From contig CAWVEQ010000012.1 of NCBI GenBank assembly GCA_963928385.1, forward strand, positions 32,957 to 96,956: DNA of 64,000 nucleotides, in the 5' to 3' direction. The notes under the pieces were generated by a model that saw nothing but the letters and a program-made list of their open reading frames with translations, had not been told where the DNA came from and did no database searches. Shown piece after piece: positions 7,202 to 19,200 of this stretch. Positions within the stretch are counted from its first letter, which is position 1. Every line of letters starts with the position of its first letter. This DNA is from Candidatus Saccharimonadota bacterium (lineage in GTDB: Bacteria > Patescibacteriota > Saccharimonadia > Saccharimonadales > Saccharimonadaceae). The translations under genes and the position numbers were made by a program.

Positions 7202-8356
7202 ATGATGATATATCTGGACAATGCGGCGGCTACGCCAGTTGATTCACGAGTACTAGCGGCTATGATGCCGTATTTTAGCGATGAGTTCTATAACCCGTCG
7301 GCTGCCTACTTGTCAGCCAGGAAAGTTCGAGCTGATGTTGAGGAGGCGCGTCACACCCTAGCTAAGCTGATAGGAGCAAAGTCGGCAGAAATTATTGTTA
7401 CTGCTGGGGCGACAGAGTCAATTAACCTGGCGTTAGGCGGCGTTGACGGTCGAATTGTGACGGTAGCTGTAGAACATGCGTCAGTCTTAGAAACAGCTAG
7501 GCAGCGTGATGGGCGTGTCCTGGCGGTTGATGACAAGGGCCGAATTAGTCTTGATGAATTGAGGGGCTCATTGACAGATGATGTAGCGTTGGTGTCTGTT
7601 GGCTATGTAAACAGTGAAACTGGCATAGCACAGAATATGCGCGCTATTGCCGAAATTGTCCAGACGGTTCGCAATGAACGCCAATCGCGTGGCGTGACCA
7701 CTCCGTTATATTTACACACGGATGCTTCGCAGGCGGCAGGTCTATTGGACTTGAACGCGTCCAGATTGGGCGTGGATTTGATGACGCTAAATGCTGGTAA
7801 GTGCTACGGACCTAAGCAAGTTGGCCTACTATATGTTCGCGCTGGCATTCACTTAAAACCGTTAATCCTGGGTGGTGGCCAGGAAATGGGTCTACGTAGT
7901 GGAACGGAAAATGTGACGGGGATGATTGGCTTTGCTAAGGCCCTGGAATTAGCAGAGAAATTACGTGGTAGCGAAGTGAAGCGCTTGAGCGAGTTGCGCT
8001 CCAAACTTAAGCAGTACCTAATCAATAATTTGCCTGATGTACGCATTAACGAAAATACTAAGGCTAACTCGCCAGCTATCTTAAACATATCTGTGCCTGG
8101 TGTTGACGGTGAACGTGTAGTGTTTGGGCTGGACGAACGCGGTGTGCAGGTGGCGACGGGATCGGCCTGTGCTGCCAATAAGGGAGTGCGTAGTCACGTG
8201 TTGACGGCAATGGGACTGGATGAGGCGGCGGTTGATGGGTCGCTAAGGATTTCTATGGGGCGATTTACTACTGAACAAGACATTAACCAAGCTGGCCAAA
8301 TAATTGTTGACGTTATTAACGAGCAGCGTCGATTCGGGGGTTTGAATGTGGCGTAG
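7202..8356 (+). CDS. Cysteine desulfurase (class V aminotransferase, NifS/IscS-like)
   Basis: It begins with a YLDNAATTP-like N-terminus (IYLDNAAATP). It also has an SGTEN motif and the active-site GSACAA cysteine. Confidence 0.85.
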   Translation: MMIYLDNAAATPVDSRVLAAMMPYFSDEFYNPSAAYLSARKVRADVEEARHTLAKLIGAKSAEIIVTAGATESINLALGGVDGRIVTVAVEHASVLETARQRDGRVLAVDDKGRISLDELRGSLTDDVALVSVGYVNSETGIAQNMRAIAEIVQTVRNERQSRGVTTPLYLHTDASQAAGLLDLNASRLGVDLMTLNAGKCYGPKQVGLLYVRAGIHLKPLILGGGQEMGLRSGTENVTGMIGFAKALELAEKLRGSEVKRLSELRSKLKQYLINNLPDVRINENTKANSPAILNISVPGVDGERVVFGLDERGVQVATGSACAANKGVRSHVLTAMGLDEAAVDGSLRISMGRFTTEQDINQAGQIIVDVINEQRRFGGLNVA

Positions 8357-8945
8357 GATTGCTATCGCTATTACGGCGATTGTTGTGGTTATCGCCCTAG
8401 TTGTTACGGCGTTGAACGTGGCCTTGGTCGAAAACGACATGGCTGGTTGCGACGCGCCGGGCAGTGGTCAGTGCGCGACGGCCGACGTGATTGTGGCGGT
8501 CAGTGGTGGCGACACTTTTGCTCGGGCGCAAAAGGCTATTGATATGTACAAAGCGGGCTGGGCAAGCAAGATTGTCTTTAGCGGCGCATCGGCCGATCCG
8601 GACTCTATTTCTAACGCCGAGGCGATGCGGCGCATTGCCGAGAGTGATGACATTCCGGCTGAGGATGTCTATCTGGATGAGCATAGCCAGGATACTAAAG
8701 AGAATGCGGCAAACGCGGTGGATATTTTGCATCGGTTGGAGGCTAAGAGTGCCATTTTGGTCAGCAGTCCGTATCATCTGCGACGGGTCAAGATGAATTT
8801 TATGGCGGTTGACGACAAGATTAGTTATCGGACGGCGGCAGCTGATGACGAGAATTGGCACTGGTGGTTTCTAAAGCCCAATGGCTGGATAATTGTGGTT
8901 AAGGAGCTGGCGGGAATTGCCGAGCTAGGTGCGGAGGTACATTAG
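8346..8945 (+). CDS. DUF218/YdcF (SanA/ElyC-like) membrane-anchored protein
   Basis: An N-terminal TM helix is followed by VAVSGG and a conserved SNAEAM-type core and SSPYHLRR. Confidence 0.6.
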   Translation: MWRRIAIAITAIVVVIALVVTALNVALVENDMAGCDAPGSGQCATADVIVAVSGGDTFARAQKAIDMYKAGWASKIVFSGASADPDSISNAEAMRRIAESDDIPAEDVYLDEHSQDTKENAANAVDILHRLEAKSAILVSSPYHLRRVKMNFMAVDDKISYRTAAADDENWHWWFLKPNGWIIVVKELAGIAELGAEVH

Positions 8946-8946
8946 G

Positions 8947-9990
8947 ATGGCCAAGGTTTACGTCGGCATGTCGGGTGGAGTGGATTCGTCAGTATCGGCG
9001 GCCTTGCTAGTTCGGCAGGGTTACGATGTGACAGGTGTCTATATGAAAAACTGGACGGTTGACGTGCCAGGTATGCGCTGTCCGTGGGCAGAGGATTTAG
9101 CAGACGCTAAACGCGTGGCAGTCCATCTAAATATCCCATTCAAAGTGTTCGACTTTCAAAATGAGTATAAGCAACTGGTGGTCGACTATATGATTCAAGA
9201 GTACCAGGCGGGGCGAACGCCCAATCCAGATATTATGTGTAACCAAGAGGTGAAGTTTGGGCTGTTCCTACGGGTCGCGTTGGCTGATGGCGCAGATATG
9301 ATTGCAACAGGACACTATGCCCGGTCGCAGGGGTCTAAATTATTGCGCGCAGCTAACGAAGACAAGGATCAGACGTATTTTCTGTATCGCGTGTCAGGCG
9401 AAGCGGTGGCTAAAACTATCTTTCCGATTGGTGATTATAAAACTAAGGATGAGGTGCGGACCAAGGCTGCTGAATTTGGCTTAAGCACGGCTACCAAACA
9501 TGACTCGCAGGGGATTTGCTTTATCGGGACCGTGGGCATTAAGGACTTTCTGAAACAGTATGTGCAAACTGAACCAGGGGATATTATTGAGCGTGAAACT
9601 GGCAAGGTGTTGGGTCATCATGACGGAGCGCTATTCTATACTTTTGGCCAGCGCCACGGGTTAAATGTTGGGGGTGGTTTACCATACTACGTGGTGGGCA
9701 AGGACATGGCTAAGAATGAGGTTTACGTCAGTAAAAACCTAAACAGCGATGGTTTCTGGCGTGACGAGATTAAGCTACACCAACTACACTGGATTAATCA
9801 GGCGCCGGTAGAGGGTGAGGTTTACCAGATTCGCACTCGTCACCGCGCTCCATTGATTGATGCTACGGTGCGATTTGATTCAGCCGCTCTTATTCTCCAT
9901 CTCTCTGCTCCCGAGCGCGCCGTTGCCCCTGGTCAATCTGTCGTTATCTACGACGGTGAGGAAGTGCTAGGTGGCGGGATAGTTGTGTAG
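8947..9990 (+). CDS. mnmA: tRNA-specific 2-thiouridylase MnmA
   Basis: The PP-loop SGGVDSS lies at the N-terminus after the ATG at 8947, which has a GGAGG upstream. It also has NPDI.CN and DQTYFL motifs. Confidence 0.9.
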   Translation: MAKVYVGMSGGVDSSVSAALLVRQGYDVTGVYMKNWTVDVPGMRCPWAEDLADAKRVAVHLNIPFKVFDFQNEYKQLVVDYMIQEYQAGRTPNPDIMCNQEVKFGLFLRVALADGADMIATGHYARSQGSKLLRAANEDKDQTYFLYRVSGEAVAKTIFPIGDYKTKDEVRTKAAEFGLSTATKHDSQGICFIGTVGIKDFLKQYVQTEPGDIIERETGKVLGHHDGALFYTFGQRHGLNVGGGLPYYVVGKDMAKNEVYVSKNLNSDGFWRDEIKLHQLHWINQAPVEGEVYQIRTRHRAPLIDATVRFDSAALILHLSAPERAVAPGQSVVIYDGEEVLGGGIVV

Positions 9991-10015: not shown

Positions 10016-10110
10016 AAAAAATGCGGCCCAATGCCGCTATGGTTTCGCTAATCCGTTTTTGCGGACGCTTATTTGAACTTGTCGTATAAATAATCGTTCT
10101 ACTGAACTGG
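10016..10110 (-). ncRNA. tracrRNA: tracrRNA (antisense to the cas operon, upstream of cas9)
   Basis: Plus strand 10071-10107 (ATTTGAACTTGTCGTATAAATAATCGTTCTACTGAAC) resembles the CRISPR repeat on the same strand. A minus-strand transcript would therefore carry a bulged anti-repeat. That is followed by AAGUUCAAAUAAGCGUCCG (compare the SpCas9 tracr AAGUUAAAAUAAGGCUAGUCCG) and a GCGGC-AUUGG-GCCGC hairpin with a U6 terminator. The exact ends are not determined. Confidence 0.75.
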
Positions 10111-10182: not shown

Positions 10183-13100
10183 ATGAGCGAAGATAAGAAA
10201 TACTATATTGGTTTAGACTGCGGAACTAATTCGGTTGGCTGGGCGGTGACGGATGAAGAATATCACTTGCTACGTCGTCGCGGTCAAACGTTGTGGGGCA
10301 TGCGACTATTTGACGAGGCTAAGACGGCGGCAGAGCGGCGGGGATATCGTTCGAATCGTCGGCGGATGGCTCGTGCAAAGCGTCGCGTTAAGTTGCTGCA
10401 GATGTTATTCAGCGAGGAAATTACCAAGGTTGACCCGGATTTTTATATCAGACTCCGCGAAAGTTTGTATCTAAAGGAAGACAAGCGAGGTTTTTCTAAT
10501 GCCGAAGCGGTGTCAAAGCATACGCTGTTTAACGACCCTGGATTTACTGATGTGGATTACCACAAACAATATCCAACTATCTGGCACCTGCGTCAGGCTA
10601 TTATTGATTCGATAAATGATAGCTCGAAGCATTTTGATGTTCGTTTGTATTATCTAGCGATTGAGCATATTGTTAAGCATCGCGGCCACTTCCTGCGTAG
10701 CGGTGAGATCAATAGTGGTGCTGGTGATTTTGGTGGGATATGGAATAATCTGTGCGATGCTGCGGGAACGTGCGGTATTACGGTTGACAAGGCCATTGCC
10801 GGCGAGGTGGAAACTCTGTTGAAGCAAAAAATGAGCAAAATCGATAAGAAAAAACAGCTTGAGAAAATAATGTTCGCTGATGTGCTGAGTAACGATGATT
10901 ATGAAGGTGACTATAAAGCTTTGGCGCATCTACTCTGTGGCAGTAATGTCTCGCTCAGCAAGTTATTTAATATCGAGGCTGATGAAGATCTAAAATTGGA
11001 GTTTTCTAGTGACGGCTTTGAAGATAAATATCCTGTGATTAGTGACTTTGTCTCAGATATTGATGGCGCTGAGGACTTAATTTTAGCAGCCAAGTCAATT
11101 TATGATTATATCTATCTATGTGATTTGCTGAAAGATAGCGATAACATATCGGCAGCCATGGTTCATAACTATGACGTACATCATCGCGATTTAGCTGAAA
11201 TTAAACAAGCGCTAAAGCCGTTCAAGGACGATTATAATCACTTCTTTAACACTGAGGTTGCTGATAGTGATGTATTTTACAATGCATATATTGGCAAAGG
11301 CTCAACTAAGAAGGACAAAGCACGCACCGTTAATCAGGAGGAAATTAACAAAGAACTAAAGCGTCTGTTTGAGAAGGACGGCATCGGCGGTGATTTGCTG
11401 ACGCGCGCAACTGAGGGAACATTGTTGCCTAAGCAGCGCGGCTATGCTAAGGGCACCATTCCGCAACAGCTTCACCATAATGAGCTGCGGCTGATTTTGC
11501 AGAAATTATGTCAAGACTACCCCAGCTTCGCTGTTGAAGTGCCCGGCGAGAATGATAAATATAATACTAAGGCAAAGAAAATTGAATACATCCATAGCTT
11601 TAGAATTCCTTACTACTGCGGACCACTGCTATCTAAAACGCAGAAAAGCGAGAAGTTTGCATGGGGCAAGGAAATTCATGAGATTGTTTATCCGTGGAAC
11701 TACGACGAGCTAGTGGACAAAGGTGGACTAGCTGGCGAGTTCATAAAAAGCATGACTAATAAATGTACGTACGTTGTTGGTGCAGATGTTCTACCAAAGA
11801 ATTCGCTATCCTATCAACGGTACATGGTGTTGAACGAATTGAATAACCTAAAAATTAATGGTTCGCGCATAGATAACGACGTAAAACAACGTATTTATAA
11901 CCAAGCTTACTTAGGTGGCGAACTGGGTGGCAATGTTACGCTTAAGAAATTGTCAGCTTGGATGAAATCGGTCGGTATTTTAGATAAGACCGATGAGTTA
12001 AGCGGTTCTTCCGAGCAGAAGATTTTGCCAAAGTTGTCTACCCATACCGATTTTTACCGTGTCTTGGGTGCTGATTACAACAAACGATACTGTGAAGAAA
12101 AGCTAGAAGAAGTGGTCAAACTAATAACCATCTTAAACAATGAACCAGCTATGTTGGCTGAGAAAATTAAGGAAACGCTAGATTGCACTGATGAGCAAGC
12201 TCGGCGGCTGGCCAGGTTGAATTATAAAGACTGGGGTAAATTTAGCCTAGATTTCTTGCGTGGTATTAGGTCTGATATGAATGGTCGCCAGATGTCAATC
12301 CTAGAGGCTCTAGAGGAAACGACAAATAATTTACAGGAACTGCTGAGTGGCGACTTTGGCTTTAAGGCTGAGCTAGACCGAACCAACGCCGAAAAAACAG
12401 ATAACGCTGATAATGCGGATGACGCTAGCAGTGAAATTACTTACGAGCGAGTCAATAAGCTGTACTGCTCGCCTGCGGTAAAGCGAACTGTTTGGCAAGC
12501 GATCAAAATTGTTAATGAGATTCGCAAGGTCATGGGCTGTGATCCAGCTAAAGTATTTATTGAGGTAACTCGTGGTGATGAAAAGGGTAAACCAAAGGTG
12601 AAATTGGCTCGGCGCAAGGAGCTACTGGATAAATACAAAGCCATTAAGGATGGCAAGGATGACTTCGCCAAGAAACTGTTTGAACAGCTAAATAGCCACG
12701 ATGACCGCGACTTACAGTCAAAGAAGTTGTTTCTGTATTACCAACAGATGGGTAAGTGTGCCTATACTGGCGAGCGGATTGAGCTGGACGAAATTAACAA
12801 TACCCGCCTATATGATATCGACCACATCTATCCACGGTCAAAGACTAAGGACGATAGTATTACGCGAAACCTAGTGCTAGTTAAGGCGGAGGTCAATCGT
12901 GAAAAGACTAATAAATATCCTATTAATCCAGACATCCAGGCGAAAATGCGTGGCCAGTGGGGGTTCTGGTATCGAAGTGGATTGATAACTAAAGAAAAAT
13001 ACGAACGACTAACGCGTACAACGCCACTAACGCCGGACGAACTGGCTGGCTTTATCCAGCGCCAGATTGTTGAGACTGGTCAGTCAACCAAAGCAATTGC

Positions 13101-14334
13101 TGAATTACTGAATCACGGCTTATCAAAAGATACTAGAGTAATTACTGTTAAGGCTGGTGGCGTATCGGATTTGCGTCATTATTATGGCTATAACGCCAAC
13201 CCACTGCGACCAGAGTTTATCAAGATTCGCGAGCTGAACGACCTACATCACGCCAAAGATGCTTATCTAAATATTGTAGTTGGCAATGTTATTAATTCAA
13301 CGTTTACCGATAATCCACGCCATTGGATTAAACAACAACAGGATAGCGGGTATAACTACTCAATTCGTACCAATCTAATCTTTCGTGATAGTGAAATTTA
13401 TACTAAGAAAGATGGTACGACTACCAAGTATCCAGTTGTCAAGGCGTGGAATTATACCGATAGCCTAGAGACTGTTTCATCGACTATGCGACGCAACGAC
13501 GTACTGTGGACTAGAATGAATCATAGGTTAAGTAGTAAGGGCGGTGGACTGATGGACGCACAATTGGTGCGCAAGGCGCCAGGATATATTCCGCGCAAGA
13601 AGGATTCTCGCTTGCAGGACACATCAAAATATGGTGGCTACAAAAGTCCAATGGGAGCCTATTTTGCTCTAATTGAGGCGCAAGATGGTTCGCGTAGGAT
13701 AATATCCATACCGTTGCTGGAAACAAGCAATGTTAATGGCTATATCAACCAAAAGTATGGTGGCGCCAAAGTGGTTATCTCTAGAATTGATTTCATGTCC
13801 AAGATGATTATAAACGGTTTCCCGGTGCACCTGACCGGAAGAACGGGCGATCAGCTTTCCTTCTATCCAGCAAAGCAACTCCATTTACCCGTGCAAGAAC
13901 TATCTTATCTTAAACGGGTTTGCGCTGTTGCAAATAAGCTGAACGATAAAAATTACAAGATTTCCGAGAAAGACAAAGTATCGAGGAACGAGAATACGGC
14001 ACTATTTAATGCTCTAGCGGGAAGGCTGCAGATAATGAGCGATGCTCCAAAGTTTGGCAAGAGGGTGGCTGAAGTTTCTGACTACGGCGATGTATTTGAG
14101 AACATGTCTTTGGAGGAGCAGTGTAGAACCGTGTCAATCCTGTTAGGCGTGGTAGGGTGTAATGCTAGCAAGGGCGATCTATCGTTGTTAATGCCAAGGG
14201 CACAGCAGCTTGGTGGCTGCACTGCTTCGAGCAATATATCGTCTTATGGGAGTTGTAAGCTCATCTATCAATCCGTCACTGGTCTATACAAAAAAGTTAT
14301 CGATCTAAAGACTGTTCAACCGGGCGAGGTGTAG
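10183..14334 (+). CDS. cas9: Cas9 endonuclease (type II-A, 1383 aa)
   Basis: It has the RuvC-I motif IGLDCGTNSVGWAV, the arginine-rich bridge helix RRGYRSNRRRMARAKRR and the HNH motif DIDHIYPRS..N. Its size is SpCas9-like. Confidence 0.95.
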   Translation: MSEDKKYYIGLDCGTNSVGWAVTDEEYHLLRRRGQTLWGMRLFDEAKTAAERRGYRSNRRRMARAKRRVKLLQMLFSEEITKVDPDFYIRLRESLYLKEDKRGFSNAEAVSKHTLFNDPGFTDVDYHKQYPTIWHLRQAIIDSINDSSKHFDVRLYYLAIEHIVKHRGHFLRSGEINSGAGDFGGIWNNLCDAAGTCGITVDKAIAGEVETLLKQKMSKIDKKKQLEKIMFADVLSNDDYEGDYKALAHLLCGSNVSLSKLFNIEADEDLKLEFSSDGFEDKYPVISDFVSDIDGAEDLILAAKSIYDYIYLCDLLKDSDNISAAMVHNYDVHHRDLAEIKQALKPFKDDYNHFFNTEVADSDVFYNAYIGKGSTKKDKARTVNQEEINKELKRLFEKDGIGGDLLTRATEGTLLPKQRGYAKGTIPQQLHHNELRLILQKLCQDYPSFAVEVPGENDKYNTKAKKIEYIHSFRIPYYCGPLLSKTQKSEKFAWGKEIHEIVYPWNYDELVDKGGLAGEFIKSMTNKCTYVVGADVLPKNSLSYQRYMVLNELNNLKINGSRIDNDVKQRIYNQAYLGGELGGNVTLKKLSAWMKSVGILDKTDELSGSSEQKILPKLSTHTDFYRVLGADYNKRYCEEKLEEVVKLITILNNEPAMLAEKIKETLDCTDEQARRLARLNYKDWGKFSLDFLRGIRSDMNGRQMSILEALEETTNNLQELLSGDFGFKAELDRTNAEKTDNADNADDASSEITYERVNKLYCSPAVKRTVWQAIKIVNEIRKVMGCDPAKVFIEVTRGDEKGKPKVKLARRKELLDKYKAIKDGKDDFAKKLFEQLNSHDDRDLQSKKLFLYYQQMGKCAYTGERIELDEINNTRLYDIDHIYPRSKTKDDSITRNLVLVKAEVNREKTNKYPINPDIQAKMRGQWGFWYRSGLITKEKYERLTRTTPLTPDELAGFIQRQIVETGQSTKAIAELLNHGLSKDTRVITVKAGGVSDLRHYYGYNANPLRPEFIKIRELNDLHHAKDAYLNIVVGNVINSTFTDNPRHWIKQQQDSGYNYSIRTNLIFRDSEIYTKKDGTTTKYPVVKAWNYTDSLETVSSTMRRNDVLWTRMNHRLSSKGGGLMDAQLVRKAPGYIPRKKDSRLQDTSKYGGYKSPMGAYFALIEAQDGSRRIISIPLLETSNVNGYINQKYGGAKVVISRIDFMSKMIINGFPVHLTGRTGDQLSFYPAKQLHLPVQELSYLKRVCAVANKLNDKNYKISEKDKVSRNENTALFNALAGRLQIMSDAPKFGKRVAEVSDYGDVFENMSLEEQCRTVSILLGVVGCNASKGDLSLLMPRAQQLGGCTASSNISSYGSCKLIYQSVTGLYKKVIDLKTVQPGEV

Positions 14335-14340
14335 AGCATT

Positions 14341-15216
14341 ATGTCCTGGCGGGTGGTGGTTATCCAGAAACGATGCAAACTAGACTATAAATTGGGTTCA
14401 ATAGTTATTCGTGACAGCGAAGACGAAAAACGCATTCACCTAGATGATGTGTCGGTGATTATGTGTGCCACCACTGCCATATCCTTGACAGCCTATCTGC
14501 TCGCTGAAATTGTTGAGCGAAAGATAAAGATAATATTTTGTGATAATCAGCATAATCCGACGGCAGAATTAGTGCCGATGTATGGTCACTATATTAGTTC
14601 GGGCAAGATTCGTCAGCAGATAAAGTGGGATGATGAGATCAAGGGACTAGTCTGGCAAGCAATTACTAGGCGCAAGATTCAGAATCAAGCAAACATCCTA
14701 CGCAAAATTGGCCAGGACGAGCGGGCTAAAATGCTGGACGGGTTTGCCGCTGAGGTAATGCCAGGTGATACAACCAACCGTGAAGGCCATGCAGCTAAGG
14801 TTTACTTTAACTCGCTATTCGGCATGGATTTTTATCGTAATAGTGCTGATGTCCGGAACGCGGTGTTAAATTATGGTTATTCCATTTTGCTGTCGTGCTT
14901 TAATCGCGAAATTGCTGCCAGTGGTTATTTGACTCAGTTGGGATTGTGGCACGACAACGCCAGTAATCCGTTTAATCTCGGCTCGGATTTGATGGAAACA
15001 TTTCGACCGATTATTGACTACTTTACTTATGGTTGTGGTTACACCGAGTTCGCCAAAGACGAGAAGTTGGACGTAGTAAATCTATTAAATATGAGGGTAA
15101 AAGTTAATGGTGCTGAGCAATACTTGAACAATGCTATTGGTACATACGTTAGAAGTGTATTTACTGCAATTGAAGAAAAAGACATTAGCAAGATAACGGA
15201 TTGGTATGAGCTATAG
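14341..15216 (+). CDS. cas1: Cas1 integrase (type II)
   Basis: It is a 291-aa protein immediately after cas9 with typical type II Cas1 organisation and a conserved acidic/His core (NYGYS..LWHD). Confidence 0.9.
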   Translation: MSWRVVVIQKRCKLDYKLGSIVIRDSEDEKRIHLDDVSVIMCATTAISLTAYLLAEIVERKIKIIFCDNQHNPTAELVPMYGHYISSGKIRQQIKWDDEIKGLVWQAITRRKIQNQANILRKIGQDERAKMLDGFAAEVMPGDTTNREGHAAKVYFNSLFGMDFYRNSADVRNAVLNYGYSILLSCFNREIAASGYLTQLGLWHDNASNPFNLGSDLMETFRPIIDYFTYGCGYTEFAKDEKLDVVNLLNMRVKVNGAEQYLNNAIGTYVRSVFTAIEEKDISKITDWYEL

Positions 15217-15526
15217 ATTTATGCGTGTAATTGTTATGTTTGATTTGCCGACCGATACATCGGCGCAGCGTAAACATTATCGGAACTTTCGCAAATACCT
15301 AATTGATGACGGGTTTGTAATGATGCAAGAATCTATTTACACGAAAATCTGCATTAATATGCATGCAGTCGACCAAGTCCAACGAAATATTGAGCGGAAT
15401 AAACCGCCCGAAGGGATTGTTCAAGTTATGAGTGTGACTGAACGCCAGTTTGCTAGCATTAAAGTGGTTGTCGGCGAACTAGATGATACGTATATTCAAA
15501 ATGATCAGAGGTTGATAGTGTTATGA
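15206..15526 (+). CDS. cas2: Cas2
   Basis: It is 106 aa with the N-terminal MSYRFMRVIVMFDLPT motif typical of type II Cas2, and it overlaps the cas1 stop. Confidence 0.85.
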   Translation: MSYRFMRVIVMFDLPTDTSAQRKHYRNFRKYLIDDGFVMMQESIYTKICINMHAVDQVQRNIERNKPPEGIVQVMSVTERQFASIKVVVGELDDTYIQNDQRLIVL

Positions 15527-16188
15527 GATTTTCGCATACGGAGCTGAATGGCGAACTGGAGTGGACTGATACGCGCCATATTAATGAGCTAGTAGTCGAG
15601 GCGCCTACTTTTCTGCGTGGCGTTTTGTGCGATTTGTTCGCTGATGAAGCAAATTGTGTTAAATTGACCAATGGTGGCAAACCGATGAACATGCCTAAAG
15701 AGATTGACTTAATTTGCAATCCGTTAGATCTAAATTTCAACAATCGGCGTGCTATGGCAACCCTGCTAAAAATGCTAGTGAAGGCCTCGCTATCTGATGA
15801 ACTATATATGGAGACCAATGAATTTAAATCTAGGGTGATTAAATATCTGGACGAGGTTGTCGACTCCGAGAACTTTGTTTTTGAAGTTGCTGCGGATGAC
15901 TTTGCGATAGATAATATTGCCAAAGCTGTTAATCTGCATATCGTTGACGACGAGGATGACTTTGTTGACTTACTGACTGATTATATGTCGATGATGGCGG
16001 AATTAGCTGGCATAAAATTATTCGTGTTTCTAAACTTGCGAACTATGCTGAGCGATGGGGAATTGGCTCGGTTGATTGGTAACATTAATAATCACCAGTT
16101 GGATATATTCTTGATAGAGGGTCGCCAGTTTGGTAAAGTCGAGAACTGTGGCCGGATTATTGTTGATGTTGATTTGTGCGAAATTTAG
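15523..16188 (+). CDS. csn2: Csn2 (short form), type II-A signature protein
   Basis: It is a 221-aa acidic protein between cas2 and the array. The C-terminal LFVFLNLRTMLSDGEL..LDIFLIEGR parallels S. pyogenes Csn2 (LLIFINSGAFLTKDEV..LTVLFLEPRE). Confidence 0.8.
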   Translation: MRFSHTELNGELEWTDTRHINELVVEAPTFLRGVLCDLFADEANCVKLTNGGKPMNMPKEIDLICNPLDLNFNNRRAMATLLKMLVKASLSDELYMETNEFKSRVIKYLDEVVDSENFVFEVAADDFAIDNIAKAVNLHIVDDEDDFVDLLTDYMSMMAELAGIKLFVFLNLRTMLSDGELARLIGNINNHQLDIFLIEGRQFGKVENCGRIIVDVDLCEI

Positions 16189-16275: not shown

Positions 16276-16772
16276 GTTTGAGAGTCGTGTTAAATAATCG
16301 TATAGCTGAACATTTTCGTGACTTCACGGAATTGATTCTGAGTTTGAGAGTCGTGTTAAATAATCGTATAGCTGAACTCCGCACTTCAAACGCACGCCAG
16401 TTAGACCGTTTGAGAGTCGTGTTAAATAATCGTATAGCTGAACTTCCATAGGTTACTCCTAAGCAGCGTCCTTGTTTGAGAGTCGTGTTAAATAATCGTA
16501 TAGCTGAACGGACAGCGCCTAGAACCTTCATGTACTTGGGTTTGAGAGTCGTGTTAAATAATCGTATAGCTGAACCGAATTATGCGCAATGTCGCTTTGC
16601 ATCAGTTTGAGAGTCGTGTTAAATAATCGTATAGCTGAACCTCTATCTGCTTAAACGTAGCTGGCTTCTGGTTTGAGAGTCGTGTTAAATAATCGTATAG
16701 CTGAACTTGTACTTGCTTGCGTTCTGCTTCGCTCATGTTTGAGAGTCGTGTTAAATAATCGTATAGCTGAAC
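16276..16772 (+). CRISPR. CRISPR array: 8 identical 36-nt repeats GTTTGAGAGTCGTGTTAAATAATCGTATAGCTGAAC and 7 spacers (six of 30 nt, one of 29 nt)
   Basis: Repeats start at 16276, 16342, 16408, 16474, 16540, 16605, 16671 and 16737. I counted these base by base from the sequence. Confidence 0.97.
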
Positions 16773-16826
16773 TATATAATATAATTCTAGTGTGGGAAAT
16801 AAGGAGCCCACTAGAAAGGAGCAAAT

Positions 16827-17120
16827 ATGCCAGTTGATAAGAACAAGACCTTGTTGAATGTTCCTAGAGTGGAACACAGTCAAGAAGTTGTTGATAGAAA
16901 CCTTGATTCAATGCAGGCTATGCTTGACGGCATTCTTCAGCGGATTCATGATGAATTACCTGAAGGCAAATACAGGGATTACTTTGATGCTCATCAAGAC
17001 GAGTTCTATGATTGGTTCTTGGATGGAGAGAACGACCTATACCCTGTTGCTAGTTGGTTTTATGACCAAGGGTTCAAGGAAGTTGCAAATCCTGAGATAT
17101 ACAAGCAATTAGACATATAG
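16827..17120 (+). CDS. Small acidic protein A (97 aa), repeat-linked, no recognisable domain
   Basis: The ORF starts 54 nt after the last array repeat. It is preceded by TATATAATATAAT, a hairpin and an AAAGGAG RBS. It is a paralog of 17331-17627. Confidence 0.7.
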   Translation: MPVDKNKTLLNVPRVEHSQEVVDRNLDSMQAMLDGILQRIHDELPEGKYRDYFDAHQDEFYDWFLDGENDLYPVASWFYDQGFKEVANPEIYKQLDI

Positions 17121-17132
17121 AAGTTGGAGAGA

Positions 17133-17241
17133 ATGAGCAAAACCAAAAACAACATAAAACTTAAAGCCACTAAGCTAGTCCATATATTAATGGACAATGG
17201 TGGAGTTGGTTCAGGAAACTGGGGTCATTCAGGCAGACCTG
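17133..17241 (+). pseudogene. 5' fragment of a phage-type gene (MSKTKNNIKLKATKLVHILMDNGGVGSGNWGHSGRPG...) truncated exactly at the orphan CRISPR repeat
   Basis: It has a GGAGA RBS and the ATG at 17133. The reading frame runs into the repeat at 17242 and terminates at 17300. As far as I recall, the GSGNWGHxGRPG motif is common in phage and MGE structural or polyvalent proteins. Confidence 0.5.
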
Positions 17242-17277
17242 GTTTGAGAGTCGTATCAAATAATCGTATAGCTGAAC
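17242..17277 (+). repeat. Orphan CRISPR repeat variant GTTTGAGAGTCGTATCAAATAATCGTATAGCTGAAC (G14A, T16C), 469 bp beyond the array
   Basis: 34 of 36 positions are identical to the array repeat. It is followed by the same 13 nt (TATATAATATAAT) as the last array repeat. Confidence 0.9.
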
Positions 17278-17330
17278 TATATAATATAATCTATATGTAG
17301 GAGATAATAGCCCTACGGGAAAGGAGCAAT

Positions 17331-17627
17331 ATGCATGTAGATAAGAATGCAACACTAGTCAACATTCCTCATGAACCTGTAGACCATGAGGTAGCGGTAA
17401 AAAACGTAGAAGCAATGCAGGCTATGGTCGATGACATCTTTCAGAAAATCCACGACGAGCTCCCAGAGGGCAAGTATCGGGATTACTATGACTCACATCG
17501 AGATGAGTTCTGGGACTGGTTTATGGATGGAGAGCACGACCTTTACCCAGTTGCAGCTTGGTTCTATGACCAAGGATTTACTGAGGCAATCGAAGACCCA
17601 GAGGTGTTCAAGCAGTTAGATTTGTAG
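17331..17627 (+). CDS. Small acidic protein B (98 aa), repeat-linked paralog of protein A
   Basis: By manual alignment about 63 of 98 residues are identical to 16827-17120. The shared core is IHDELPEGKYRDY..DEFxDWFxDGExDLYPVAxWFYDQGF. The upstream architecture is the same. Confidence 0.7.
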   Translation: MHVDKNATLVNIPHEPVDHEVAVKNVEAMQAMVDDIFQKIHDELPEGKYRDYYDSHRDEFWDWFMDGEHDLYPVAAWFYDQGFTEAIEDPEVFKQLDL

Positions 17628-18057
17628 GAAACAATTTAAGTCAAGCACCAATGAGTCAAAAAAATAAATAAAGGATTTTTATAAAAATATATTTAGTGAT
17701 GTCGAAGAGAAATAGAGTGTACCTGAAAAATAACGGTAGCTCGCTAGACAATGATAGGTCGGGCAGCTTGAGTGTGGACCTGAACAGTGATTATTTGCCT
17801 AAGTACGTTCGGTTTACGTTTAGGGATTGTAATATTATATTGGCGGTGACTATGAGGTCTGCAAAACACTGCGCGATCAGGGCGTAGCCAAAGATTTGTT
17901 TGGCACACTGAAAGAATTTGAAGGTATGAACTGGACTACCTTTATGAATCGATCGAGAAAAACGGGGCGGTCACAAGAGCAAAGGAACCAACCAAATTAT
18001 GCAAAGCTACGGGGGCGAGTTTCCTGACATCCAGCACACTTATCCCGGCGGTTGCAA

Positions 18058-18687
18058 CTAATCCAACTTTATCTTCTCTACAACATTAATTCCCGCATCG
18101 ACCAGAGATTTATACTTAACAAAATCGTCGTGGCTGCCGACGACCATGCCGTAGTGGGTGGGGATGGCGGTGGCGGGGCGAATTCTGTTGGTGAAGTTTG
18201 CCGCTTCGGTTGCATCCATGGTGTAAGTACCGCCAATGGGGATAAATAGTGTGTCGCAACGAATATTCTCGTTTTCTGGTAAGGCGTCGGTATCGCCCAT
18301 AATGTAGTAGATGGCGTTGTTAATGGTGACGACGTAGCCCACCCAATTATTAGCTTTGGGGTGGAAATCTTTATCGATGTTGTAGGCGGGAACGGCCTGG
18401 ACGTGAACACCGTCTAAATCTAACTCATCATTTGGCTGGACGCAGCGCAACTTATTGGCGTCAAAGCCTGTCTCTGCGAGCTTGTCATATACGTCACGCG
18501 GGGCGACGATTATAGTGCTCTCGTTGACGGCCTTTTGAATGTCCTCAGGCGAGAAGTGATCCCAATGGCTATGCGTAATGAAGACGTAATTCGCATCATG
18601 CTGCTCGGATATTTTTAGCGGGTCGAAATAAACCGCTAAACCACCGTTCTCGATTCGTATACTGCTCTGACAATTAACTGTTATCAT
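18058..18687 (-). CDS. MBL-fold metallo-hydrolase
   Basis: It has the HSHWDH (HxHxDH) motif and is 209 aa. Confidence 0.8.
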   Translation of the reverse strand: MITVNCQSSIRIENGGLAVYFDPLKISEQHDANYVFITHSHWDHFSPEDIQKAVNESTIIVAPRDVYDKLAETGFDANKLRCVQPNDELDLDGVHVQAVPAYNIDKDFHPKANNWVGYVVTINNAIYYIMGDTDALPENENIRCDTLFIPIGGTYTMDATEAANFTNRIRPATAIPTHYGMVVGSHDDFVKYKSLVDAGINVVEKIKLD

Positions 18688-18864
18688 GGCTCCTCCGATG
18701 TTGTGTAATAATCTAATTATAAATTGCCGAGCTATAAATAGCGAATAGAGGAAAGTCGCCGAATGAACTAAATAGCATCACCTCATAATTCAAGTAGCTT
18801 ATTTGGTCGGCATTTTTGCAATATTTGCCTAATGTGGTATTATCGTTACTGTAACTGGTGACGT

Positions 18865-18941
18865 GGGTTGCTAGCTCAGTTGGCTAGAGCACCTCGTTTA
18901 CACCGAGGGGGTCAGGGGTTCGAGTCCCTTGCGACCCACCA
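18865..18941 (+). tRNA. tRNA-Val (UAC), CCA encoded
   Basis: A cloverleaf can be drawn by hand: acceptor GGGTTGC/GCGACCC, anticodon loop TTTACAC, and T-loop TTCGAGT. Confidence 0.9.
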
Positions 18942-18960
18942 GATAACAATTTGACGGTAT

Positions 18961-19037
18961 GGGGCACTAGCTCATTTGGCTAGAGCGCTTCGCTGGCAGC
19001 GAAGAGGTGAGCGGTTCGAATCCGCTGTGCTCCACCA
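18961..19037 (+). tRNA. tRNA-Ala (GGC), CCA encoded
   Basis: The acceptor stem carries the G3:U70 identity pair and the anticodon loop is CTGGCAG. Confidence 0.9.
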
Positions 19038-19060
19038 GTTTTTATTGTCAGATTGTGTAT

Positions 19061-19137
19061 GGGCAGGTAGCTCAGCTGGCTAGAGCGCCACATTCACACT
19101 GTGGAGGTCGGGAGTTCGAGTCTCTTTCTGCCCACCA
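19061..19137 (+). tRNA. tRNA-Val (CAC), CCA encoded
   Basis: The acceptor is GGGCAGG/TCTGCCC, the anticodon stem is CCACA/TGTGG and the loop is TTCACAC. Confidence 0.9.
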
Positions 19138-19200
19138 GTTGCGAAATTATTATGTATGCTGCCTTAGCATACTATTTTTAATAAAGAATAGGCGCTAGCT

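Follow-up and report, generated by a model that had tools for sequence, protein, structure and literature searches.

Organization of the Type II-A Locus

The window, i.e., the whole stretch of 64,000 nt analyzed here, is part of a genome of 816 kb in 17 contigs (96% complete). [quoted passage not shown] Downstream of the array are two genes encoding small acidic proteins, A and B, which are separated by a truncated open reading frame (ORF), here called the fragment, and by a ninth repeat, the orphan repeat. We use unit A to refer to the 469 bp between the array and the orphan repeat, and unit B to refer to the sequence from the orphan repeat to the end of the second acidic gene. Downstream of unit B no repeat was found, and the search for a degenerate repeat there scored no better than shuffled sequence.

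Table 1. Features of the type II-A locus and its surroundings, in window coordinates.
Feature	Position	Strand	Remarks
mnmA	8929-9990		
tracrRNA gene	10016-10108	-	antisense, upstream of cas9; anti-repeat, nexus-like stretch, hairpin, and terminator GCGGCATTGGGCCGC plus T-run
GC hairpin, then T-run	10037-10023	-	
Repeat-like sequence	10087-10108	+	in the tracrRNA gene
tracrRNA promoter-like site	10144-10115	-	
Type II-A cas operon	10183-16188	+	ORFs and Pfam domains Cas9_REC, Cas9_PI, HNH, RuvC, Cas_Csn2
cas9	10183-14334	+	1383 aa
cas1	14341-15216	+	
cas2	15206-15526	+	
csn2	15523-16188	+	
CRISPR array	16276-16772	+	8 identical 36-nt repeats, 7 spacers of 29-30 nt
Last array repeat, bounding unit A	16737-16772	+	
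Unit A	16773-17241	+	469 bp
Unit A, 5' region	16773-16826	+	54 nt, phage-derived; -10 box and 5'UTR hairpin; repeat replaces the -35 box
Acidic gene A	16827-17120	+	97 aa, pI 4.3; dN/dS 0.1-0.5; phage counterpart has its own promoter
Gap between acidic gene A and fragment	17121-17132		12 nt
Fragment	17133-17241	+	36 codons and 1 further nt from the start of a phage gene; the cut coincides with the repeat edge
Would-be crRNA guide	17222-17241	+	20 nt, GGGTCATTCAGGCAGACCTG; predicted from the type II-A maturation pathway
Orphan (terminal, ninth) repeat, bounding unit A	17242-17277	+	variant GTCGTATCAAAT; 2 substitutions relative to the 8 array repeats
Unit B	17278-17627	+	second 5'UTR allele and acidic gene B
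Unit B, 5'UTR	17278-17330	+	
Acidic gene B	17331-17627	+	98 aa, pI 4.3
Broken gene 3' of unit B	17696-18027		
MBL-fold hydrolase gene	18058-18687	-	
Three tandem tRNA genes	18864-19138		74 nt each, between the MBL hydrolase gene and corA

In the list of ORFs, the fragment is part of a frame on the plus strand (17124-17300, 58 aa from a TTG start). From the ATG at 17133, which is preceded by GGAGAGA and lies 12 nt past the TAG of acidic gene A, the translation is MSKTKNNIKLKATKLVHILMDNGGVGSGNWGHSGRPG followed by LRVVSNNRIAELYNIIYM. The frame reads through the orphan repeat and stops at 17300, and codon 37 (GGT) spans the junction, with its G at 17241 and its GT contributed by the orphan repeat. 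A preliminary description of this frame, made from the sequence alone, is confirmed in its start, its cut at the orphan repeat, and its stop. The gene 3' of unit B is broken by an extra 5-nt ATATT near 17835, which leaves ORFs of 63 and 43 aa. At the same position, G024 (a Candidatus Saccharibacteria MAG of the same genus) and L034 have an unbroken ORF of 108-118 aa, which matched no family.

Phage Origin of the Fragment

The first 37 residues of the frame are identical at 34 positions to the N-terminus of a 293-aa protein (P0020) found in siphophage contigs, and 96 of 108 nt agree with the start of the phage gene (12 differences). In one of these contigs (L038, 60.5 kb, with portal, ADP-ribosyltransferase, tape-measure, and Dit genes), a homolog of the acidic gene is present at 8001-8297, and the gene of the 293-aa protein, beginning MNKTKNNIKLKATKLVHMLMDNGGVGSGNWGHAGRPGLVGGS, follows after 12 nt, the same distance as in the window. 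The protein starts with MNKTKNNIKLKATKLVHMLMDNGGVGSGNWGHAGRPG and goes on beyond the host cut point with LVGGSRAY. The host copy ends at GRPG and is followed by the translated repeat (LRVVSNN...), whereas the phage homolog has LVGGS and about 250 further aa. Since the frame in the window ends exactly where the phage protein goes on as LVGGS, the transfer was from phage to host, at least for this unit. The phage origin that had been proposed for the fragment is borne out by this full-length gene in the same gene order, and the proposal that the junction is a scar of recombination or integration is supported as well.

The contigs with the full-length homolog encode portal, tape-measure, Dit, Gp10_C, and endolysin genes. 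Relatives of the acidic protein form only 19 database clusters, all 61-92% identical, and are found either in chromosomal loci like that of the window or in phage contigs, which also encode portal, ADP-ribosyltransferase, Gp10_C, HK97-gp10-like, 1900-aa tape-measure, Dit, and endolysin proteins. In the phages, the acidic gene is preceded by TTGAC(A/T), a spacer of about 17 nt, TATAAT, a 5'UTR hairpin, a Shine-Dalgarno (SD) sequence, and the ATG. From TATATAATATAAT onward, the host sequence that follows each repeat agrees with that of the phage (L041 for unit A), and the repeat occupies the place of the -35 box. Both phage alleles of the 5'UTR are present in the host, the L041 type before A and the L038/L042 type before B. 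As a whole, the 469 bp of unit A are a contiguous phage segment in which the -10 box and the 5'UTR precede the acidic gene, and to which the next gene contributes its first 36 codons.

Based on these comparisons, the fragment is very probably a dead stub of a siphophage gene, lying at the edge of a contiguous 469-bp phage segment that is held as the last unit of the array. The 109 nt are the remnant of the first 36-37 codons of a gene that lies 12 nt 3' of an acidic gene with its own promoter, in phages of this Candidatus Saccharibacteria genus. In the parent protein of 293 aa, the NGGxGSGNWGHxGRPGxxGGS motif is N-terminal and is accompanied by a weak toxin-like domain of the papain fold. The segment begins at the -10 box in the promoter of the acidic gene, ends at codon 37 of the gene that follows, and is the last type II-A array unit between intact repeats. 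The stub itself is a scar at the 3' edge of this giant unit with its gene, and the unit is the object of interest.

The 5'UTR hairpin occupies the same place in both alleles (16785-16816 and 17290-17320 in the window, 7960-7990 in L038, and also in L041). Its stems differ (GTGTGGG...CCCAC(T) versus GTAGG...CCTAC) in a compensatory pattern common to host and phage copies, and an SD-like AAGGAG is present in the loop of allele A.

Two trivial explanations were rejected. A chance ORF is ruled out by the nucleotide and residue identities to the phage gene, and an assembly artefact is ruled out because the same architecture recurs in no fewer than 10 independent assemblies, from short and long reads alike, and is also present in the genome of a second species. 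The fragment and the acidic proteins had no match in PHROGs, Pfam, NCBIfam, or PADLOC. A tblastn search of GenBank phages with the fragment and protein A gave nothing useful, and comparison of the fragment with 400 genomes of the order gave chance matches only. No relatives were found for the 293-aa phage protein in IMG/VR, nor for the acidic protein in IMG/VR and the JGI metagenomes. A decayed counterpart of the fragment, which had been suspected after protein B at 17651-17671, was not recovered in this AT-rich sequence, where the alignment score was 34 against a mean of 37 for shuffled sequence.

The Truncated Frame and the GSGNWGH Motif

The truncated frame has some attributes of a gene. 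It possesses a good ribosome-binding site and an ATG, is annotated as a 55-aa gene in other assemblies, and is open in all host variants except L088_m16, whose deletion-scarred 370-nt unit, from a noisy long-read assembly, lacks the ORF start. However, because its C-terminal half is translated repeat and its length follows the downstream allele (55 aa in the window, 164-167 aa in other strains, where it is fused to B), it is unlikely to be a gene. In addition, dN/dS among host copies is about 0.4-1.1, a value from very few sites, and some strains have no unit at all. A real host protein of 55 aa is hardly credible, and the truncated ORF appears to be functionless as a protein.

The motif GSGNWGHxGRPG corresponds to residues 26-37 of the frame and occurs in a single copy in the window's genome, with no further copies. 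With the 37 residues as query, 201 proteins were matched by phmmer in the full library at E <= 1e-3; most of them are 500-2500 aa long with 3-10 copies of the motif, and polyvalent proteins have 5-10 copies. In P0022, the motif stands between Zeta-toxin, 2'-5' RNA ligase-like, and kinase-like domains. These matches agree with the earlier assignment of the motif to polyvalent or virion-associated proteins of mobile genetic elements (MGEs), and its expected continuation as GGS was recovered in the phage versions, which read LVGGS, KVGGS, or KRGGS. The host copy, without xxGGS and the following domain, is therefore a truncated member of this group.

The phage loci contain 3-5 copies of NGGxGSGNWGHxGRPGxxGGS each, and the motif sits towards the N-terminal end of consecutive proteins encoded between the portal and the capsid-side genes. 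Some of these proteins are ADP-ribosyltransferases above the Pfam threshold; others, including the 293-aa parent of the fragment, show a repeated sub-threshold match to the papain-fold Gln_amidase. The multi-domain design of P0022 is the polyvalent-protein architecture described by Iyer et al. (2017, PMC5512222). In such large MGE proteins, the motif of the fragment recurs between the domains. In the phages analyzed here, by contrast, the modules are separate genes and not parts of one polypeptide. The motif also heads consecutive toxin-like proteins adjoining the portal gene, a likeness to phage-packaged polymorphic toxins (MuF-toxin phage proteins). It may be a processing site or a packaging signal, although no description of such a role was seen in Iyer et al. 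(2017, PMC5512222).

Copy Number and Inheritance of the Unit

The unit is bounded by intact repeats on both sides in the window and likewise in five other host variants. Its length is 469 nt here and 467-469 nt in relatives, compared with about 30 nt for regular spacers. Related Saccharibacteria strains contain zero, one, or two units, each bounded by repeats. In L034-L037, 33 repeats are followed by a 467-nt unit, a repeat, and B; in L086, two tandem 469-nt units, each between repeats, precede B; L088 has the deletion-scarred unit of 370 nt and one of 469 nt; L087, L089, and L090 have one unit; and in L081, L082, L083, and L091, which have none, the array runs directly into the last repeat and B. 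The unit is therefore inherited, duplicated, and deleted like an array unit, which is in line with the suggestion of an insert that acts like a spacer of excessive length.

Between lineages, the repeat variants GTGTTAAAT and GTATCAAAT exchange roles: the array of L034 uses the variant that is the orphan one in the window, and the window does the reverse. Regular spacers at the trailer end are wholly different between strains with identical Csn2 (sets 1-7, 8-22, and 33-48), and the arrays are mosaic between strains. Spacer turnover and mosaic arrays indicate that the locus is active and recombining, yet the unit persists. Within L086-L093, where Csn2 is 100% identical to that of the window, the spacer sets are wholly different from those of the window or mosaic. 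The array of L087 contains the window's spacers 1-7, nine others, and then a second copy of 5-7, and therefore the window array looks like a deletion derivative. In several long-read assemblies (L087, L089, and L090), cas9 and cas1 are split into many short ORFs, which are probably sequencing frameshifts and not real decay.

The acidic genes were also found in genomes without the cas genes. G024 has neither cas genes nor array and keeps A, the fragment, a perfect repeat, and B; its deletion of cas9-csn2 and the array has a crossover in the 11-nt TAAATAATCGT that is common to the tracr locus and the last repeat. A tracr/repeat hybrid is left directly before unit A in this genome (L013, 9430-9500, minus strand). 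In two more cas-less lineages (L032/L033 and L044), one acidic gene is kept in each. In L032 (8295-8540), remnants of repeats in reverse complement come after the acidic gene, together with one spacer and a hybrid of repeat and tracr sequence, an arrangement that is inverted relative to mnmA and without cas genes. A related type II-A locus in the genus (G022, whose Csn2 is 70% identical) ends in a normal trailer and lacks an acidic gene.

The Acidic Protein and Allele Exchange With Phages

Each acidic protein is a mosaic built from a small set of N-terminal, middle, and C-terminal blocks, and these blocks occur in host and phage copies alike. Over the 5'UTR and the gene, host A alleles are nearer to phage L041 (up to 91%, for G024-A), and B alleles nearer to L038/L042 (87% for L034-B with L038, 83% for window-B with L042), than A is to B within one genome (74% in G024, 72% in the window). 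Both units begin at the same phage base despite their different alleles, which is read as one or few captures, after which homologous recombination replaced the alleles. At its two ends, the unit is invariant in all six host variants over the first 13 nt and the last 47 nt, and this reading accounts for both stretches neutrally, since conversion tracts cannot cross a junction that lacks phage homology on its far side.

With dN/dS values of 0.08-0.5, the acidic genes encode a protein under purifying selection. A profile search of the PDB with the acidic protein gave no match; the AF2 model is helical (pLDDT 63.5) and matched no PDB fold. The acidic protein appears to be the selected cargo of the unit, because it is kept even where the cas genes are lost. 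This retention by hosts after loss of CRISPR-Cas flags an uncharacterized family of phage proteins.

As a small acidic phage protein with a strong promoter of its own, it resembles the anti-CRISPR (Acr) proteins. However, no match to a known Acr was found by sequence or fold (Pfam, PHROGs, NCBIfam, PADLOC, and PDB), and no aca-like HTH gene is present beside the acidic gene in the phage loci. Unlike the setting of anti-CRISPRs, the neighboring host arrays look active, with complete spacer turnover between strains. The lone repeat beside the acidic gene also recalls the RNA anti-CRISPRs, the solitary repeat units of phages; here, in contrast, the lone repeat is in the host and not in the phage. 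In another reading, the acidic protein is a stolen antidote against a toxin-like effector delivered by the phage or another phage function, and the stub supplies a crRNA against the repeated motif of the effector genes. We consider this combination quite improbable. If it were true, the array would store a protein-based and an RNA-based memory of the same phage, and the one to three divergent acidic alleles would be refreshed via recombination with infecting phages.

The Putative Guide and Its Targets

The end of the fragment had been proposed to be processed into a guide. An array transcript would be expected to run through the unit, so that tracrRNA, RNase III, and Cas9 could release a crRNA whose guide is the last 20 nt of the unit. 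The orphan repeat can pair with the tracrRNA of the window, the computed duplex energy being -32.7 kcal/mol for both repeat variants. A protospacer for the 3' end of the fragment, however, was not recovered in the fetched phage loci. The guide has at least 4 mismatches over 20 nt to every motif copy in the fetched phage loci (16/20 in the best). The best phage matches have 4-5 mismatches, seed included, and every copy is mismatched 2 nt from the PAM end (CCAG versus CCTG).

The fetched phage loci comprise 241,660 nt in total, which overlap and cover part of each genome only. They were compared with 143 spacers from 10 arrays (123, plus 20 from the related locus in G022), and one of these, spacer 2 of L034, has a protospacer, a 30/30 match to the tape-measure gene in three phage contigs. 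This match makes the phage family a genuine target of the type II-A system. The 3' flank of this sole protospacer (n = 1) is GATATTTTCA, and the phage flank of the donor of the unit, a pseudo-protospacer, is GTCTTGTTGG. From its sequence, the Cas9 of the window lacks the RKR motif of SpCas9, so that an NGG PAM cannot be assumed. In further comparisons, 39 spacers had no match in GenBank phages and chance matches only in 400 genomes of the family, and four spacers of the window had no match in IMG/VR.

If the last 20-30 nt and the orphan repeat were kept by selection as a functional guide, the crRNA would direct Cas9 to the region coding for GNWGHxGRPG. The orphan repeat is intact, its pairing with the tracrRNA is as strong as that of the array repeats, no terminator-like site lies inside the unit, and the target motif occurs several times in each phage locus. 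The last 47 nt are unchanged in six distinct host variants while the rest is variable, and in L038, 5 differences, mostly synonymous, fall in the last 20 nt, compared with 7 in the preceding 88 nt, an escape-like pattern. The invariance, however, also has a neutral account, because conversion tracts cannot reach across the junction without phage homology beyond it, and G024 retains the same 47 nt and a perfect repeat without cas9 or the tracr promoter. Together with the mismatches in all sampled phage copies, and with one protospacer from which to derive a PAM, this makes a functional guide unlikely.

Origin of the Unit

Both junctions of the unit fall exactly on repeat edges, and for this reason we argue for an entry process that respects the geometry of the array, either the insertion of an oversized prespacer by the integrase or recombination with older spacers. 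The integrase route, recombination with older spacers, and a microhomology junction have roughly equal odds.

If Cas1-Cas2, with Csn2 and Cas9 possibly involved, integrated a 469-bp prespacer at a repeat and duplicated the repeat, the unit would be a true giant spacer. Such an event would leave full 36-nt repeats on each side, as observed. The unit also stands at the trailer end, the oldest position, it is duplicated and deleted as spacers are, and the phage family is one that the system does target. Its length, however, is 15 times the 30-nt norm, PAM adjacency has n = 1 protospacer to go by, and unit B, with the same start base as A, has no downstream repeat or remnant, so that an extra deletion or another mechanism would be needed. 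We regard this origin as possible but rather unlikely.

The unit may also have arisen by recombination without the integrase, either between phage DNA and older spacers at both ends or through a microhomology junction and tandem duplication via the repeats. This is a tentative possibility. The phage sequence ...CCAGGTCTTG and the host sequence ...CCTGGTTTGAG have GGT.T in common across the junction, and a TTG codon for Leu in the donor phage would raise the microhomology to 6 nt. Recombination is frequent between phage and host and between units, as seen in the mosaic alleles, and the arrays themselves are mosaic between strains. Against it, none of the 143 spacers from the 10 arrays matches the region of the acidic gene, and two independent illegitimate junctions that both fall on repeat edges are unlikely, at roughly 1 in 66 each.

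A third origin is suggested by the prophage phiAP1.1 of S. pyogenes, for which site-specific integration into type II-A repeats, with repeats then present on both sides of the phage DNA, is documented (Varble et al., bioRxiv 10.1101/2020.10.09.333658). The unit would then be the remnant of a prophage that was integrated in the CRISPR repeat and has since been mostly deleted. This is very improbable. The unit is a contiguous internal segment of the region of virion proteins rather than a pair of prophage ends. The 241,660 nt of overlapping, partial phage loci contain no repeat-like attP (chance matches of 8-10 nt only), and no integrase was seen in the phage loci read, from partly sampled genomes.

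Comparison With Known Array Elements

The unit resembles an ordinary type II-A spacer, as in the S. pyogenes and S. thermophilus CRISPR3 arrays, in several respects: it consists of phage DNA whose two ends abut full repeats exactly, its array is accompanied by cas9-cas1-cas2-csn2 and by an antisense tracrRNA, and it is duplicated or deleted via the repeats. Its 3' end abuts a repeat as that of an ordinary spacer does, so a crRNA could be cut from it. It differs in its length (469 nt versus 30 nt), in carrying a complete, conserved, and expressed-looking gene with a promoter remnant, and in its interior, which keeps exchanging alleles with phages. In phiAP1.1, phage DNA is likewise flanked by repeats in a type II-A array, and among the phage genes is one for a small protein, AcrIIA23, an anti-CRISPR under a promoter of its own (bioRxiv 10.1101/2020.10.09.333658); in contrast, there is here no attP-like repeat in the sampled phage loci, no whole prophage, and no integrase seen. 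The unit is a variation on known things, i.e., spacers and phage DNA in arrays, and not a new category.

Spacers are usually regarded as short, non-coding memories. A unit of 469 bp that has the geometry of a spacer, carries a conserved phage gene, and varies in copy number like a spacer is unusual, and it exchanges alleles with the very phage family that its CRISPR system targets. If the unit was made by the integrase, the range of what the adaptation machinery can insert would be wider. If it was made by recombination, arrays would serve as landing pads for the capture of phage genes in ultra-small CPR bacteria, for which there are few other ways to gain genes.

The match of L034 spacer 2 also provides a first link, through a protospacer, between a Cas9 system of Saccharibacteria and its phages. 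At this site in the tape-measure gene (L076, 19633-19662; L099-L102), phages of other sample series match the spacer 30/30, and phages from the sample series of the L034 host itself have 5 mismatches and a changed 3' flank, which are due either to escape or to plain divergence.
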